A stretch of DNA of 26,287 nt from a virus (IMGVR_UViG_2609460221_000003); one strand, 5' to 3'; positions 1 to 6,941 are shown, numbered from the stretch's first letter. Numbers and translations: made by a program. Notes: generated by a model from the sequence alone, not told the origin.

Positions 1-849
1 CGAGTGATTCGTGCTGCTGGTGGCGCTGGCGCATTGTCTGACTGGTTACTGCGCCATGTTAAATCCTGCCAGTGGCCACACGGCGATTATCACCACAGTG
101 AAACCGTCATTCACCGTTATGGTACCGGCGCAATGGTGTTGTGCTGGCACTGCGACAACCAGCTGCGCGACCAGACCTCCGAATCACTCGGGCAACTTGC
201 TCACCAAAACCTGTCTGCATGGATGATTGACGTCATACGCCATGCAATGAATGGCTCGCAGGAACGGGAATTATCGCTGGCTGAATTATCCTGGTGGGCG
301 GTCCGCAATCAGGTGGCGGACGCGCTACCGGAAGCGGTATTACGTCGTTCGCTGGGGTTGCGTGCGGAAAAAATCCGCTCAATGTACCGTGAAAGCGACA
401 TCGTACCGGGAGAGCAGACCGCCACCAGCATACTGAAACAGCGCACAAAAAATCTTGCGCCGCTGCCTCACGCCCACCAGCAACAGAACCCACCACAGGA
501 AAAGACGGTGGTCAGCATTGCCGTTGATCCGGAATCTCCGGCTCAGTATCTCCAGCGCCAGAAACCACAACGGGAAGAGATGCCTGTATACACGCGCTGG
601 GTAAAAACGCAGAAATGCATGACGTGTGGCAATCAGGCAGATGATCCGCATCACATCATTGGTCATGGACTGGGAGGGATGGGAACAAAGGCTGACGATT
701 TGTTTGTTATTCCGCTGTGTCGTAAATGCCATAACGAACTACACGCCGGGGTAAAAGATTTTGAAGAAAAACACGGTAGTCAGTTGTTGTTGCTGATTCG
801 TTTTTTAATGCACGCGAGAAATTCGGGTGTTCTGAAGTGGAAAGCATAA
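1..849 (+). CDS. Prophage nin-region protein, DUF968-like with C-terminal Cys/His zinc-finger (HNH-like) motif; 5' end truncated by window edge
   Basis: ORF open from window start, stop TAA 847-849. C-terminus has CMTCGN...HHIIGHGLGG...CRKCHNELH motif. Lies immediately upstream of rusA as in many lambdoid prophages. Family name is recalled, not searched. Confidence 0.55.
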   Translation, partial: RVIRAAGGAGALSDWLLRHVKSCQWPHGDYHHSETVIHRYGTGAMVLCWHCDNQLRDQTSESLGQLAHQNLSAWMIDVIRHAMNGSQERELSLAELSWWAVRNQVADALPEAVLRRSLGLRAEKIRSMYRESDIVPGEQTATSILKQRTKNLAPLPHAHQQQNPPQEKTVVSIAVDPESPAQYLQRQKPQREEMPVYTRWVKTQKCMTCGNQADDPHHIIGHGLGGMGTKADDLFVIPLCRKCHNELHAGVKDFEEKHGSQLLLLIRFLMHARNSGVLKWKA

Positions 850-1218
850 ATGACCGAACGCATAGAATTTGTTTTGCCTTACTCGCCGACGGTGAACACT
901 TACTGGCGACGCCGTGGCAGCACATATTTTGTATCAAAAGCCGGGGAGCGTTATCGCCGGGCAGTGGCGCTTATTGTTCGCCAGCAGCGACTGAAATTAA
1001 GCCTGTCCGGACGGCTGGCAATAAAAATTATTGCAGAGCCACCGGATAAGCGTCGTCGTGACCTGGACAATATTCTGAAAGCACCACTGGATGCGCTGAC
1101 GCACGCGGGGTTGTTAATGGACGATGAGCAGTTTGATGAAATCAATATTGTACGTGGCCAGCCAGTATCTGGTGGACGGCTGGAGATAAGAATTACAGAG
1201 GTGGGTGTGCATGAATAA
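850..1218 (+). CDS. rusA: Crossover junction endodeoxyribonuclease RusA (Holliday junction resolvase)
   Basis: 122-aa ORF; ATG at 850 abuts the upstream stop. Translation carries RusA-like segments (PDKRRRDLDNILKAPLDALTHAGLL, GGRLEIRITE) and typical length (~120 aa). Confidence 0.9.
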   Translation: MTERIEFVLPYSPTVNTYWRRRGSTYFVSKAGERYRRAVALIVRQQRLKLSLSGRLAIKIIAEPPDKRRRDLDNILKAPLDALTHAGLLMDDEQFDEINIVRGQPVSGGRLEIRITEVGVHE

Positions 1219-1900
1219 CCAGTATTTACAGTTTGTTCGTGAGCAACTCATGATTGCCACTGCAGATCTCAGTGGGTCGACAAAATGCCAGCTGGAAGCC
1301 TGGCAGGAAAATGCCCTGTTCGATACAGGGCGTTACAGACGCAAAAAAATTCGTTACCGCGATGAGGTAACCGGAAAAATGATCACGCGGGATAATCCCC
1401 CGATCCAGGGTAAACAATCACTGGCGAAAGGCTCATCAATTGCGCTGGTCAGTCCTGTTGAGTTTGCAACATCATCGTGGCGGCGTGCTGTTCTGGAACT
1501 GGAAGAACATCAGAAGGCGTGGTTGTTGTGGTGTTATGGCGGAAACATTTGCTGGGAGCATCAGATCGCGATAACGCAGTGGGGGTGGAGTGAATTTAAA
1601 ACTCAGTCCGGCTCCAGAAAAATTGCAGTGAAAACGCTGGAGCGTGTGAAGAAGTTGATCTGGCTGGCGGCACAGGATGTCAGAGGATGGGTTACCGGGT
1701 GTGAGGTCTACCAGAGACAGGAGCTTGCCAGACTGTGTGGAGTTAAGCCTGATAACTGGAGCCATAATTATGCGAACTACTGGCGTGAGATGTGCGATAT
1801 TTTTAAGCGCCTCGATAGAGAATCCTTGATTTGCTCCGTGAAAATAAGAGCGCAACAAAAAGCGACCTTTTCACGACGAGATATTGCAAAAGTCAATTAA
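1211..1900 (+). CDS. Late-gene antitermination protein Q-like
   Basis: 229-aa ORF; ATG 1211 overlaps rusA stop (ATGAATAA), RBS GAGGTGG 7 nt upstream. Position (after rusA, before a promoter/terminator pair and the lysis genes) is the canonical Q slot. Sequence-family assignment is from recall only. Confidence 0.6.
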   Translation: MNNQYLQFVREQLMIATADLSGSTKCQLEAWQENALFDTGRYRRKKIRYRDEVTGKMITRDNPPIQGKQSLAKGSSIALVSPVEFATSSWRRAVLELEEHQKAWLLWCYGGNICWEHQIAITQWGWSEFKTQSGSRKIAVKTLERVKKLIWLAAQDVRGWVTGCEVYQRQELARLCGVKPDNWSHNYANYWREMCDIFKRLDRESLICSVKIRAQQKATFSRRDIAKVN

Positions 1901-1925
1901 ATCGCGTATGTTTCGTATAAATCTG
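1884..1925 (+). promoter_or_regulatory. Putative late promoter (pR'-like): -35 TTGCAA (1884-1889), 17-bp spacer, -10 TATGTT (1907-1912)
   Basis: Sigma70-like hexamers with 17-bp spacing straddling the Q stop codon, followed about 50 nt later by a strong intrinsic terminator, as in lambda pR'/tR'. Confidence 0.35.
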
Positions 1926-1961
1926 ATATTTTGCCGATTTTGTACGTGATGGCAAAGTAAG

Positions 1962-1990
1962 AAAAAACCACCGCCAGGTGGTTTTTTTTA
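1962..1990 (+). terminator. Intrinsic terminator (tR'-like), bidirectional in form
   Basis: AAAAAA-CCACC-GCCA-GGTGG-TTTTTTTT: 5-bp GC stem, 4-nt loop, A-run upstream and 8-T run downstream. Confidence 0.7.
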
Positions 1991-2112
1991 TGTCCGAAAA
2001 TCGCGTCAGTACAGTAAACGCGCTGGTGGTTGCGAATACGGGTCTTTCAGCTTGCCGGCTTTTTCGACAAGAGTTATTGGTATGTCACGTTAACCGGAAA
2101 AGGGAAAAAGAC

Positions 2113-2310
2113 ATGCTAAAACAGCAGGATATGACAGAAGCCGCCAGAGTGGTGTTTAATGAATTAAGCGTTACCGACCCGGCGACAGTCAGGGAGATTG
2201 CACAGAATACTTACCTTTCACGCGAACGCTGCCAGTTAATACTGACCCAGCTTGTTATGGCGGGTCTGGCAGACTATCAGTTTGGTTGTTACAGACACCT
2301 TCAGTCCTGA
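2113..2310 (+). CDS. Small hypothetical protein (65 aa), possible helix-turn-helix; stand-alone moron unit
   Basis: ATG 2113 with AAGGGA upstream; stop TGA lies inside a perfect 7-bp hairpin followed by a T-run (2298-2322). The longer 110-aa track ORF from 1978 would start inside the tR' terminator, so the internal ATG is preferred. Confidence 0.4.
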   Translation: MLKQQDMTEAARVVFNELSVTDPATVREIAQNTYLSRERCQLILTQLVMAGLADYQFGCYRHLQS

Positions 2311-2322
2311 AGGCTTTTTTAT
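2298..2322 (+). terminator. Intrinsic terminator
   Basis: CCTTCAG-TC-CTGAAGG followed by CTTTTTTATTT. Confidence 0.6.
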
Positions 2323-2436
2323 TTGTGGTAAATGGGCGGCTGGTGGGTGTGGTGGTTGTTGCTTTCCCGTTGCTGAAAAAGAAAACGCCAGACTGTTAGC
2401 CGGGTATCAGTTAGCGGGAGAAATTTTTAAATACTT

Positions 2437-2650
2437 CACAATTCAGGCGGTTGACTGTTGTCTGGTTTGCGGGGAGTTTGTTAAAAGAAACTGGCATGGT
2501 GAATCCCCCTGTGCGGAGGGGCAATCAGCGAGTAGGTATATGGGATAATCGCGGATTCAGGTGCTGGTACTGAATTCACCGGGAGGCACCCGGCACCATG
2601 CAATGGCACATAGCGCCACTCTCCAGCCCCTCTCCGGAGGGGCTTTTCTG
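2437..2650 (+). ncRNA. Candidate structured RNA unit A (paralog of unit B), ending in an intrinsic terminator
   Basis: Shares three conserved blocks with unit B: GCATGGTGAATCCCCCTG(N)GCGGAGGGGC, CTGAA(T/C)TCACCGGGAGGCACCCGGCACCATG, and AGCCCCTCTCCGGAGGGG plus T-run. CATGGTG...CACCATG can pair as a closing stem. TTGACT box at 2451-2456. No plausible ORF. Confidence 0.3.
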
Positions 2651-2838
2651 TGCCGGATACATCACAGTTTCTGGAACCTTAGGTACTACAGTATCAGTCA
2701 GGGTGCTATATTTTCAGATGTGATGAAAGCCTGTCAGCAGGCAGGGCGTATCGGAAATGACCCAGTAGAGAAAACGTTGACTCAGATACCGGTGCTGAGT
2801 TACCGGGAAACCGGCATCACATGACCGCTATCCTTCCA

Positions 2839-2866
2839 GGCCCATCCGCTCCGGTGGGCCTTTTTA
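2839..2866 (+). terminator. Intrinsic terminator
   Basis: GGCCCA-(9-nt loop)-TGGGCC followed by TTTTT. Confidence 0.5.
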
Positions 2867-2904
2867 CTGCAGAAAACAGGTTCCCCGTTAAATGCTATGT
2901 TGCT

Positions 2905-3137
2905 CACAATTCAGTAAGTTGACAGTTGCCTGTCAGACTGGGCATTTGTTAAAAAAATTTCGCATGGTGAATCCCCCTGAGCGGAGGGGCGACTGGTGAC
3001 GGTATAATCTCTGATTATCAAAACGAGAATGACGCGGGTTTAGTGGCACCGGGCTGAACTCACCGGGAGGCACCCGGCACCATGTGCATGATGATACAGA
3101 TACGCGGCTTTAGCCCCTCTCCGGAGGGGGTTTCTTG
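2905..3137 (+). ncRNA. Candidate structured RNA unit B (paralog of unit A), ending in an intrinsic terminator
   Basis: Same three conserved blocks as unit A with a divergent central segment; TTGACA box at 2919-2924; CCCCTC-TCCG-GAGGGG hairpin plus GTTTCTT at 3114-3137. Confidence 0.3.
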
Positions 3138-3142
3138 TGGGC

Positions 3143-3171
3143 AAAAAAAGCCCGCGCTGGGAGACGCGGGC
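3143..3171 (-). terminator. Intrinsic terminator oriented for the minus strand
   Basis: A-run (3143-3149) then GCCCGCG-(8-nt loop)-CGCGGGC on the plus strand, i.e. hairpin followed by U-run on the minus strand. Confidence 0.4.
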
Positions 3172-3364
3172 GGCAAGGAATAAACAATAAAACGTGAAGT
3201 AATATTTCAGCTGGCGAATAATACCCCATAGTAATCACTCTGCGCAACTGCGCGGTCTTTTTCGAATTGCGGGCTGTCGTGTCTCTTCTGCCATTGTCCT
3301 GTAACTTCCGGACTTCAGCCCGCTCCTTATTTTACTCACAATATTATCCCGGCCGGGAGGATTC

Positions 3365-3477
3365 ATGGCATTTAAACACTATGACGTGGTCAGGGCGGTA
3401 TCGCCGTCAGACCTTGCGAAACGACTGACACAAAAACTGAAGGAGGCTGGCAGCCGTTTGGTAGTCCGGTGGCCATA
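3365..3477 (+). CDS. Out-of-frame N-terminal segment of the esterase gene (DUF1737-like leader), 37 codons
   Basis: ATG 3365 preceded by a strong RBS GGGAGGA at 6-nt spacing; translation MAFKHYDVVRAVSPSDLAKRLTQKLKEAGSRLVVRWP* ends at 3475-3477, overlapping the start of the main esterase frame. Confidence 0.45.
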
Positions 3478-5220
3478 ACCCCTTATACCCTGATGCAGGC
3501 GATTGCAGCAGAAGGTGATGTGGTGGTCAGTGGTGCAACTGAGCCGGATTGGTACTACGTCATCGTACTGGCCGGGCAGTCCAATGCCATGGCTTACGGT
3601 GAAGGGCTTCCGCTGCCGGATTCATACGATGCGCCCCATCCGCGCATTAAGCAACTGGCCCGTCGTAACACAGTGACTCCCGGTGGTGAAGTATGCGTAT
3701 TTAACGACATCATTCCTGCTGACCATTGTCTGCATGATGTTCAGGATATGAGTACGATTAACCATCCCCGGGCTGACCTGAGCAAAGGGCAGTACGGCTG
3801 TGTCGGACAGGGCTTACATATTGCCAAAAAACTGCTTCCGTATATCCCTAATAACGCGGGGATCCTGCTGGTACCATGCTGTCGTGGTGGTTCGGCATTC
3901 ACCCAGGGCACGGAGGGGACATTCAGCGAGTCCACGGGGGCCAGTCAGGATTCGGCTCGCTGGGGAGTGGGTAAGCCGTTATATCAGGATCTGCTTTTCC
4001 GCACGAAGGCAGCATTGCAGAAAAACCCGAAAAACGTTTTGCTGGCGATATGCTGGATGCAGGGGGAATTCGATATGACGAATGCCAGTTACGCCCAGCA
4101 GCCAGCAGCATTTCTTGCAATGGTACAGCAGTTCCGTGCTGACCTTGCCGGGCTGGCGGCGCAGTGTCACGGTGGAAGTCCGGCATCAGTCCCCTGGATT
4201 TGTGGCGACACGACATACGCGTGGAAACAAGAACACGGTACGCAATATGAAGTGGTATATGGTGCATATAAAGGTAAAGAATCCCAGCAGATTTATTTTG
4301 TTCCCTTTATGACCGATGGTAGCGGAGTTAATACACCGACAAACAACCCGTCAGAAGATCCTGATATTGCCGGGTCTGGTTATTACGGTTCGGCATCCCG
4401 AACGAACAAAAACTGGGTATCATCAAATCGCCCGACGCATTTCAGCTCATGGGCGCGTCGTGGCATTATTCCCGATCGTATGGCAACTGCTATTCTGAAC
4501 GTAGCCGGTCGCACCTTAGCCTTCATTAGTGGTAAGGCACCGGAAATCAAACCCTCGCCCGGCGGCGACACTCCATCGGGGCCGTCTGATGGTGACACAT
4601 CCGTTCGTACAGTCTCCCTGCTGCCGACAGCCGGAGAGGCTGCTGCGCAGGGCTGGACCATCACCGGCGGCAGTGTTGCGCTGGAAGATGGTGTGTTTAA
4701 GGTTACCAAGCAGAGCAATAAAACTTGGTCCCTGATGCATCCGGTGGATGACGCAGTCTCCCTGCTGACACGGGGTGGCAGACTGAGCTGTAAGTTTCGA
4801 CTGTCAGGCGCACTGACCAACAACCAGTTCGGTCTGGGAATTTATCTGTATACCGATGTAGCGTTACCTGACGTCGTGGCGATGACCGGGACTGGTAACC
4901 CGTTCCTGATGTCGTTCTTCACCCAGACCACAGACGGCAAACTGAATCTGATGCATCACAGGAAAGCAGGAAACACAAAGTTGGGCGAGTTCGGGAATTA
5001 CAGTAACGACTGGCAGACGCTGGAGCTGGTGTTCACCGCCGGCAGTGCCACGGTTACTCCGAAACTGAATGGAGTGGCTGGCCCGGCATTCCAGGTCATA
5101 AAAGACAGTCTGACACTGGGGCTGAATGCGCTGACGCTGACGGATATTACCAAAAATGCAGCGTATGGCGTTGAGATAGAAAGTCTGGTGCTGGAGATAA
5201 ATGCACCAGCATCATCATAA
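3469..5220 (+). CDS. Prophage sialate 9-O-acetylesterase (NanS-p-like, SGNH/SASA hydrolase with C-terminal extension)
   Basis: 583-aa ORF. The N-terminal part carries the esterase signature (VIVLAGQSNAMAYGEG; WMQGEFD). It sits in the usual NanS-p position between Q/toxin locus and holin. The true start is probably ATG 3365 in another frame (see findings). Confidence 0.8.
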   Translation: MAITPYTLMQAIAAEGDVVVSGATEPDWYYVIVLAGQSNAMAYGEGLPLPDSYDAPHPRIKQLARRNTVTPGGEVCVFNDIIPADHCLHDVQDMSTINHPRADLSKGQYGCVGQGLHIAKKLLPYIPNNAGILLVPCCRGGSAFTQGTEGTFSESTGASQDSARWGVGKPLYQDLLFRTKAALQKNPKNVLLAICWMQGEFDMTNASYAQQPAAFLAMVQQFRADLAGLAAQCHGGSPASVPWICGDTTYAWKQEHGTQYEVVYGAYKGKESQQIYFVPFMTDGSGVNTPTNNPSEDPDIAGSGYYGSASRTNKNWVSSNRPTHFSSWARRGIIPDRMATAILNVAGRTLAFISGKAPEIKPSPGGDTPSGPSDGDTSVRTVSLLPTAGEAAAQGWTITGGSVALEDGVFKVTKQSNKTWSLMHPVDDAVSLLTRGGRLSCKFRLSGALTNNQFGLGIYLYTDVALPDVVAMTGTGNPFLMSFFTQTTDGKLNLMHHRKAGNTKLGEFGNYSNDWQTLELVFTAGSATVTPKLNGVAGPAFQVIKDSLTLGLNALTLTDITKNAAYGVEIESLVLEINAPASS

Positions 5221-5370
5221 AAAGTGAGCCAGTCAAATGGAAGGTATCGTTAAACTCACCGGTAGTGTCAGTGGGTCGTCTGAGATGCCTGCATGAGTTA
5301 TCAGAGCCATCAGTACTTAACTGGTGGCTTTTTTTATTGTTGTCAGCTTCCGGATAACGGGAGACGGGGT

Positions 5371-5586
5371 ATGTACCAGATGGAAAAAATCACAACAGGT
5401 GTGTCATACACCACGTCAGCGGTGGGAACGGGCTACTGGTTCCTGCAGTTGCTGGACAGGGTTTCCCCGTCTCAGTGGGCGGCAATAGGCGTGCTGGGGA
5501 GTCTGCTGTTTGGGCTGCTGACATATCTGACTAACCTGTATTTCAAAATCAGAGAGGACCGTCGTAAGGCTGCACGGGGAGAGTAA
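5371..5586 (+). CDS. S: Holin, phage 21-type pinholin (class II, dual start)
   Basis: 71-aa product with two transmembrane segments and charged C-terminus ([13 protein letters not shown]); dual-start motif MYQMEK with ATGs at 5371 and 5380. Preceded by a hairpin plus T-run at about 5304-5336. Confidence 0.85.
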
Positions 5587-5590
5587 TTCA

Positions 5591-5935
5591 ATGACTCAAA
5601 ACTATGAACTGATTGTGAAAGGGATCCGCAATTTTGAGAATAAAGTTACGGTAACTTTAGCGTTACGGGACAAAAAACGCTTTGACGGTGAAATTTTTGA
5701 CCTGGACATCTCGCTGGACCGTGTTGAAGGTGCCGCGCTGGAGTTTTATGAGGCAGCAGCCAGAAGGAGCATCAGACAGGTCTTCCTGGATGTTGCTGCC
5801 GGGTTATGTGAAGGGGATGAGCAGTCGCCGGAAAAGCGCCCCGTAATTTTAGAGGCGCAGGATGTGTTGATAACCTACAGAGGAAAACTACCGGGAATAA
5901 TTACGGGTTCTCTGAAGAGTCCGCCGAAATGGTAA
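5591..5935 (+). CDS. Hypothetical protein (114 aa) between holin and endolysin
   Basis: ATG 5591 lies 4 nt after the holin stop (translational coupling), GGGGAGAG upstream; no recognisable family. Confidence 0.5.
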   Translation: MTQNYELIVKGIRNFENKVTVTLALRDKKRFDGEIFDLDISLDRVEGAALEFYEAAARRSIRQVFLDVAAGLCEGDEQSPEKRPVILEAQDVLITYRGKLPGIITGSLKSPPKW

Positions 5936-6173
5936 TTTTACCAGCATATTTTTCATCCAGTAATACAGCAAGCCGCCTGAAAGAGTCTTGTTGTTCCTGA
6001 GACCATTTGGGATTGCATGATTCAAACTGGATTGATGCCAGCGTTGATTGCATCTGTTCCCTTGGAATTGAGAATGCCAGATATGAGAAGGCGACGGTAA
6101 GGGTATTCACGTCTTCCCGAAGCCTGGAAATGCTGTCGAGCAACTCCTGTAGAGAAATGGTGTTATTGTCCAT
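5901..6173 (-). CDS. Hypothetical protein (90 aa), antisense to the lysis operon
   Basis: Minus-strand ATG at 6173 with RBS GAGGA 6 nt upstream; converges on and overlaps the 3' end of the 5591-5935 gene by 35 bp; no recognisable family. Confidence 0.4.
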   Translation of the reverse strand: MDNNTISLQELLDSISRLREDVNTLTVAFSYLAFSIPREQMQSTLASIQFESCNPKWSQEQQDSFRRLAVLLDEKYAGKITISADSSENP

Positions 6174-6902: not shown

Positions 6903-6941
6903 AAAACCCCGTTTGTTGGCAGCAAGCGGGGTTTTGTTTTT
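6903..6941 (+). terminator. Intrinsic terminator downstream of endolysin
   Basis: AAAAA-CCCCG-(15-nt loop)-CGGGG followed by TTTTGTTTTT. Confidence 0.6.

Follow-up and report, generated by a model that had tools for sequence, protein, structure and literature searches.

In phage lambda, late transcription starts at a constitutive promoter, pR', that follows gene Q; sigma70 brings about an early pause, a short transcript (6S RNA) ends at tR', and read-through into the late genes depends on Q. Lambda polymerase pauses at +16/17 and terminates at +193 (PMC4914094, PMC5001585). The Q82 family (PF06323) is one of three unrelated families of Q proteins, and its mechanism is still an open question (PMC9388147). 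At the pR' of phage 82, the transcript begins with AAA and carries a -10-like pause-inducing element with an extended -10 motif, the span of which (+9 to +14) is bracketed by insertions at +9 and +15; the pause, at +25/+26 with +25 a U, depends on GCC at +15-17, after which comes an AT-rich stretch (PMC5001585). The Q-binding element is located between the -35 and -10 hexamers, and a segment from -90 to +30 of 82 pR' joined to lambda tR' forms a Q-responsive module (PMC4914094). In Stx phages, which have a different Q family, the RNA made from pR' in lysogens and ended at tR' can act as a regulator: RNase E cuts the 258-nt leader to yield StxS, an Hfq-binding RNA of 74 nt (PMC7547250).

Here we describe a locus of this kind in a viral sequence. 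The window (the whole stretch of DNA analyzed, 26,287 nucleotides) corresponds to the late region of a lambda-like (lambdoid) prophage of E. coli, and its positions 1700-2350 are 100% identical to many E. coli chromosomes, among them that of strain 7/2 (NZ_CP023820). The segment around the 3' end of Q (Table 1) is very probably the pR', Q-utilization site, and tR' of a lambdoid prophage with a phage 82-family Q. Elements, register, and conservation can be seen in the sequences themselves, and from phage 82 and lambda we infer the transcription start, the pause, termination, and the action of Q. A reading of the raw sequence alone had thus located a real regulatory switch: the pR'/tR'-like late switch proposed in the first-pass annotation is supported by the Q82-family gene, the pause register, conservation, and the late genes lying 3', and its remark that the short transcript of Stx phages acts as a regulatory sRNA was also correct (PMC7547250). 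The window follows the same logic as lambda, but its Q belongs to a family unrelated to that of lambda (PF03589), its pause is predicted at +25/+26, and its leader RNA is expected to be only ~70 nt long. The module belongs to a well-known class that is common in E. coli.

Table 1 Coordinates of genes and of observed or predicted regulatory features in the window.
Feature	Position	Strand	Remarks
DUF968 gene	4-849		5' of Q
rusA	850-1218		5' of Q
Gene Q, 229 aa, phage 82-family antiterminator	1211-1900	+	Pfam match and identity to phage 82 and 434 Q
-35 hexamer TTGCAA	1884-1889	+	Within the last Q codons
Spacer, 17 bp	1890-1906	+	Contains the Q stop codon; expected site of the Q-binding element
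Q stop codon TAA	1898-1900	+	
-10 hexamer TATGTT	1907-1912	+	
Predicted transcription start, A of AAA	1919	+	Inferred; 7 nt past the -10; AAA conserved
Predicted constitutive leader RNA, ~70 nt (71 nt)	1919-1989	+	Two-hairpin fold
Putative sigma70-dependent pause element	1924-1935	+	TG (+6/+7), TATTTT (+9 to +14), GCC (+15-17)
Leader hairpin 1 (predicted)	1927-1959	+	UAUUUUGCC (+9 to +17) / GGCAAAGUA (+33 to +41); -10.3 kcal/mol, z = -3.3
Predicted promoter-proximal pause, T/A at +25/+26	1943-1944	+	From register only
Intrinsic terminator tR' (predicted)	1962-1989	+	Readable both ways; A6 1962-1967; 5-bp G+C stem CCACC 1968-1972 / GGTGG 1977-1981; loop GCCA; T8 1982-1989
65-aa ORF, first in the late transcript	2113-2310	+	Own terminator at 2298-2313; TrmB-like match too weak for the Pfam cut-off
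STnc100 copy 1 (Rfam)	2465-2655	+	136 bits (gathering score 47); terminator at end
STnc100 copy 2 (Rfam)	2933-3142	+	159 bits (gathering score 47); terminator at end

Gene Q and the predicted late promoter

The ORF directly 5' of the promoter encodes a Q82-family protein. It matches PF06323 (E = 2.2e-82), is 66.4% identical to phage 82 Q (X92588) over its full length of 229 aa and 62.9% identical to phage 434 Q, and is labeled antitermination protein Q in RefSeq. A search of solved structures with the protein (encoded at 1211-1900) found no relative, the best PDB match (E = 0.15) being unrelated. The Qin prophage of K-12 was considered as a source of a homologous, mapped pR' and dropped, its Q (ydfT) being unrelated.

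The first-pass annotation placed TTGCAA-17-TATGTT astride the Q stop codon, and these coordinates are right (Table 1). Taken by themselves, the hexamers are at chance level: with 8 of 12 bases agreeing with the consensus, they fell short of the cut-off of 9 and were not listed by our promoter scan, while promoter-like sites with at least 8 matches number 25 on the plus strand of the window and ~30 in shuffled sequence, that is, background. It is the surrounding context that raises pR' above chance. A composite pattern joining such a promoter (at least 8/12) to TGnTAnnnT at +6 to +14 occurs once in the 26-kb window, at pR', against ~0.065 expected per strand. Third-codon entropy over Q codons 224-229 is 0.16 bits, the lowest of any six-codon window in the gene (mean 0.87), and among relatives the alanine in these last codons is always GCA and the lysine always AAA. 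At the sequence level, then, the 3' end of Q carries a putative sigma70 promoter. An alternative -10, TATAAA at 1916-1921, was rejected: it is without a -35 and is not conserved (relatives have TGTAAA or TGCAAA).

With +1 set at A1919, the window reads AAATCTGATATTTTGCCGATTTTGTA, so that AAA occupies +1-3, TG +6/7, TATTTT +9-14, GCC +15-17, and the AT-rich GATTTT +18-23, with T at +25. In this predicted register, all published features of phage 82 pR' are present: the AAA start and, at 1924-1943 in the initial transcribed region, the extended -10-like element (+6 to +14), GCC at +15-17, and U at +25 (PMC5001585). The phage 82 leader was compared through its published description (PMC5001585) rather than its literal sequence, and the direct sequence comparison covers phage 82 up to the Q stop codon, where the public record ends. 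Within that record, the Q gene (66% identical) also carries the -35 TTGCAA in its last codons, with a 3' end of ...attgcaaaactggattaa. The promoter spacer differs from that of phage 82 at 7 of 17 positions, and likewise from that of phage 434 at 7 of 17, and recognition of the window's spacer by its Q is our assumption.

Phage 434 has the same layout, with TTGCAA, a 17-bp spacer, and a -10 (TATACT), followed by an AAA start, TG at +6/7, and TATGTT at +9 to +14. It differs from the window in having GTA in place of GCC at +15-17, and in a terminator ending ~54 nt from the start, giving a leader of ~54 nt without hairpin 1 compared to ~70 nt here. Phage 434 and the relatives described below, all of the same Q type, keep the positions of promoter, pause element, and terminator; a comparison of this kind had been suggested in the first-pass annotation.

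By analogy, sigma70 RNA polymerase would start constitutively at about A1919 from TTGCAA-17-TATGTT. Sigma70 still held by the polymerase would then rebind the non-template strand at TGaTATTTT (+6 to +14) and, with GCC at +15-17, would cause a pause at about +25/+26. Without Q, the polymerase would escape and terminate at the hairpin and U8 tract (1962-1989), releasing a leader RNA of ~70 nt. When Q is supplied from the early operon, it would bind the DNA of the promoter spacer and load with NusA onto the paused complex, rendering it resistant to terminators; the modified polymerase would run past tR' and the terminators beyond it and so transcribe the genes for lysis, packaging, head, and tail.

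The terminator and the predicted leader RNA

Past the predicted pause site, and ahead of the late genes, comes a terminator candidate that the terminator scan lists on both strands. The description of this element as a strong terminator holds for its perfect U-tract and its extended stem (-13.9 kcal/mol with the A:U extension, z = -4.6), but less well for the G+C core, which has just five pairs (-7.6 kcal/mol). Its distance from the predicted start is 43-49 nt, in agreement with the earlier estimate of within about 50 nt. Among relatives, tR' is conserved as a structure rather than as a sequence. At least 12 distinct stems occur at the equivalent position, with changes on both sides of pairs, and in an alignment of 29 sequences 88.9% of cells are paired, versus 38-53% with slid partners. 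Compensating changes include C-G to A-U in eight sequences and, at another pair, G-C to A-U in three. A terminator is also annotated at the equivalent site in the phage 434 record (OL657226).

The predicted leader RNA is unusually stable (-27 kcal/mol, z = -5.7) and is laid out as a free 5' end (AAAUCUGA), hairpin 1, an A-rich linker, and the terminator with its U tail. The 5' arm of hairpin 1 is an RNA copy of the pause element. Folding relatives one by one yielded at least four sequence versions of this hairpin, the others being AUGCUGCC/GGCGGCAU, UGCCA paired with UGGCA or UGGCG, and GUCG/CGAC. A covariation count on a MAFFT alignment was set aside: it returned zero two-sided changes, because the divergent versions were misaligned and their changes went uncounted. 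Support from relatives for hairpin 1 is therefore suggestive only. Phage 434, phiES15, Flotzy, and the L046 group have no such hairpin, their terminator following the pause site immediately; hairpin 1 is therefore dispensable for the switch. Since -90 to +30 of 82 pR' suffices as a Q-responsive module, conservation of +31 to +41 must have another cause; hairpin 1 could serve an sRNA role or tune termination.

We consider it possible, though unlikely, that the leader acts in lysogens as an Hfq-dependent, trans-acting sRNA, the counterpart of StxS in prophages without Stx. If true, this would extend the StxS idea to many non-toxigenic prophages. A search of the leader against Rfam 15 gave no family at the gathering score; the best plus-strand matches were Phe_leader (28.3 bits, cut-off 55) and isrK (19.4 bits, cut-off 50), and these, together with a minus-strand match to STnc370, were rejected as driven by the terminator. 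A duplex search of the leader against hha was not significant. We also considered whether the leader could be HnrS, a 66-nt multicopy prophage sRNA (PMC13502914); this seems improbable, given that no convincing pairing between the leader and hha was found. The HnrS paper (PMC13502914) and its preprint give no sequence and no position relative to Q, and do not mention antitermination.

The minus strand of this region also holds several signals. One is a promoter-like site at 1955..1928 (TTGCCA-16-CAAAAT, 9/12), located within the leader and directed toward Q. The sequence UUUUCGGACAUA stands directly before a hairpin and U6 when the terminator is read on this strand. A cII box (TTGC-N6-TTGC, minus strand) that overlaps the palindromic -35 TTGCAA occurs in phages 82 and 434 and in 7 of 26 distinct relatives, and carries the label paQ in phage 434; the corresponding positions are 1876-1889 in the window and 2166-2179 in the related locus L001. 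Phage 434 thus has an intact cII box with paQ on the strand opposite its late promoter, and the window has neither: with ACGA in place of the second GCAA, paQ seems to have been lost.

Conservation among relatives and alternative readings

Relatives were collected by scanning viral contigs, in which 598 stretches encode a Q relative and 80 loci were kept, and by adding phage 434, the PPompW prophage, phages of Klebsiella, Enterobacter, Cronobacter, and Escherichia, and genomes of 17 Enterobacterales species. The leader set was accordingly drawn from IMG/VR contigs, from phages 434, PPompW, CobraSix, RothD, phiES15, and Flotzy, and from the 17 species genomes. The latter were searched with a degenerate pattern, for which true Q82 loci made up 17 of 80, most matches being chance occurrences in AT-rich genomes.

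Across Enterobacterales, ~40 distinct leader variants share the same geometry, with Q identity as low as 30-33%; the sole exception is the recombinant Salmonella SW-37, in which the C-terminus of Q has been replaced. The -35 TTGCAA is invariant where the Q C-terminus is shared (phiES15 has TTGAAA), and the spacer is fixed at 17 bp. The -10 is of the type TAnnTT (TATGTT, TACGTT, TACATT, TAAATT, TATATT, or TATACT), although a few distant phages have CATATT, CAGAAT, or GATATT; six bases follow before the start, which is usually AAA. Apart from SW-37, all relatives have TG at +6/7 and TAT at +9-11. The full TGATAT is found in nearly every one, including a phage with a 33%-identical Q; its counterpart in phage 434, in register, is TGGTAT. 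A hairpin with a T-run is present in nearly all, and the predicted RNAs are 50-80 nt long. In Flotzy (Q 33% identical) the promoter lies ~30 bp past the stop codon with the same elements present; this promoter is noncoding and yet conserved, so the conservation does not stem from coding constraint. These data make available ~40 naturally varying pause and loading sites of the Q82 type, and the predicted start of the late operon and its likely 5' leader can now be annotated for this prophage family.

Conservation bears on the reading in which the locus has no late promoter, the hairpin being just the end of the early Q transcript and the hexamers a chance match. The hexamers do occur at background frequency and were unlisted by the scan, and the terminator directly follows the Q stop codon. 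However, the -35, the 17-bp spacer, TAnnTT, AAA, and TGATAT keep their exact spacing down to 30-33% Q identity, the Flotzy promoter stands in noncoding DNA, and the synonymous sites under the -35 are frozen; in addition, the late genes would be left without a promoter next to Q. We regard this reading as exceedingly improbable. A slightly less remote one treats the element chiefly as the gene of a trans-acting sRNA (~70 nt, of the Hfq-binding type), with Q loading secondary or lost. The z-score of -5.7 for the predicted RNA fits that idea, as do the conservation of the hairpin 1 3' arm (+33 to +41), which is beyond the sufficient -90 to +30 of 82 pR', and the precedent that StxS sets for regulatory pR' leaders (PMC7547250). 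Against it, hairpin 1 is missing in phage 434, L046, phiES15, and Flotzy, no Rfam 15 family reached its threshold, and the hha duplex search was not significant; moreover, with an intact Q and a fully conserved pause element, Q loading is the simplest explanation, and a primary sRNA role appears very unlikely.

It is just as improbable as the absence of a late promoter that the two-way terminator also ends a minus-strand RNA, either a paQ-like antisense to Q or a short RNA containing UUUUCGGACAUA. Several of the minus-strand signals could be taken in its favor: the terminator is listed at 1987..1962 (-) with -13.2 kcal/mol, UUUUCGGACAUA at 2000..1989 (-) is a perfect 12-nt complement of the start region of hha (UAUGUCCGAAAA), a sub-threshold STnc370 match covers 2031..1956 (-) (35.9 bits, cut-off 54), a promoter-like site is present at 1955..1928 (-), and paQ with a cII box is annotated here in phage 434. 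Other observations speak against it. Most relatives lack the A-run to which the terminator owes its two-way character. O157 copies have not retained the hha complement, and we estimate that ~0.14 such 12-mers would be expected in the window by chance; the complement at 1989-2000 (-) is probably a coincidence. No convincing minus-strand promoter was found upstream of 2000 when the sequence was read by eye, the number of sites in the promoter scan is about that expected by chance (6 against 5.1), and the cII box GCAA-N6-GCAA is broken, the window having ACGA. A Q-dependent pR'/tR' module thus remains our preferred reading of the locus.

Prevalence and the late operon

Among 5426 complete E. coli genomes, 1839 contain DNA similar to 1870-1962, in up to five copies each. 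The block from the terminator onward (1968-2060 in the window, 2500-2600 in locus L093) is more widespread still, occurring in 2328 of the 5426 with 80-90% conservation, also behind unrelated Q types. In an O157 prophage, the same downstream block follows a lambda-like AACGATGGG pause element; Q and its site are therefore exchanged as a cassette, and these comparisons suggest a recombination junction at tR'. What follows the terminator also varies: in the relatives L085 (PPompW_699, 2386-2626) and L071, tRNA genes (Met, Lys, Arg) come directly after tR' and replace the 65-aa ORF.

In the window, the U-tract is immediately followed by an ATG (1990) that shares the reading frame of the 65-aa ORF (2113-2310); 8 nt 5' of this ATG, GGTGG from the 3' arm of tR' resembles a ribosome-binding site. 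In the L024 group and O157, positions 1990-2112 carry 1-nt indels and the DNA is nonetheless conserved. For this stretch, a conserved 5' leader is more probable than a coding function.

The genes that follow lie on the same strand and encode lysis and morphogenesis functions. Tandem copies of STnc100 separate the first late ORF from a gene for a NanS-like esterase, which is followed on the plus strand by a P21-type holin and a DUF1327 protein and then, in order, by lysozyme, Rz, the terminase small and large subunits, portal, tail tube, tape measure, L, and I. The tape-measure gene is represented by two adjacent ORFs (PF20155, then PF06120; 19618-22100, plus strand), which may reflect a frameshift; given this split, the prophage may be defective.

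Read-through in this operon would have to pass many further stops. The first-pass estimate of at least eight terminators beyond tR' is about right, with seven distinct plus-strand candidates at 2298-5331 and clear plus-strand terminators also at 6903, 11855, 18123, and 23055. Terminator-like sites are enriched in positions 1-6000, from Q to the lysis genes, where 20 were found compared to 5.7 +/- 2.8 in shuffles.
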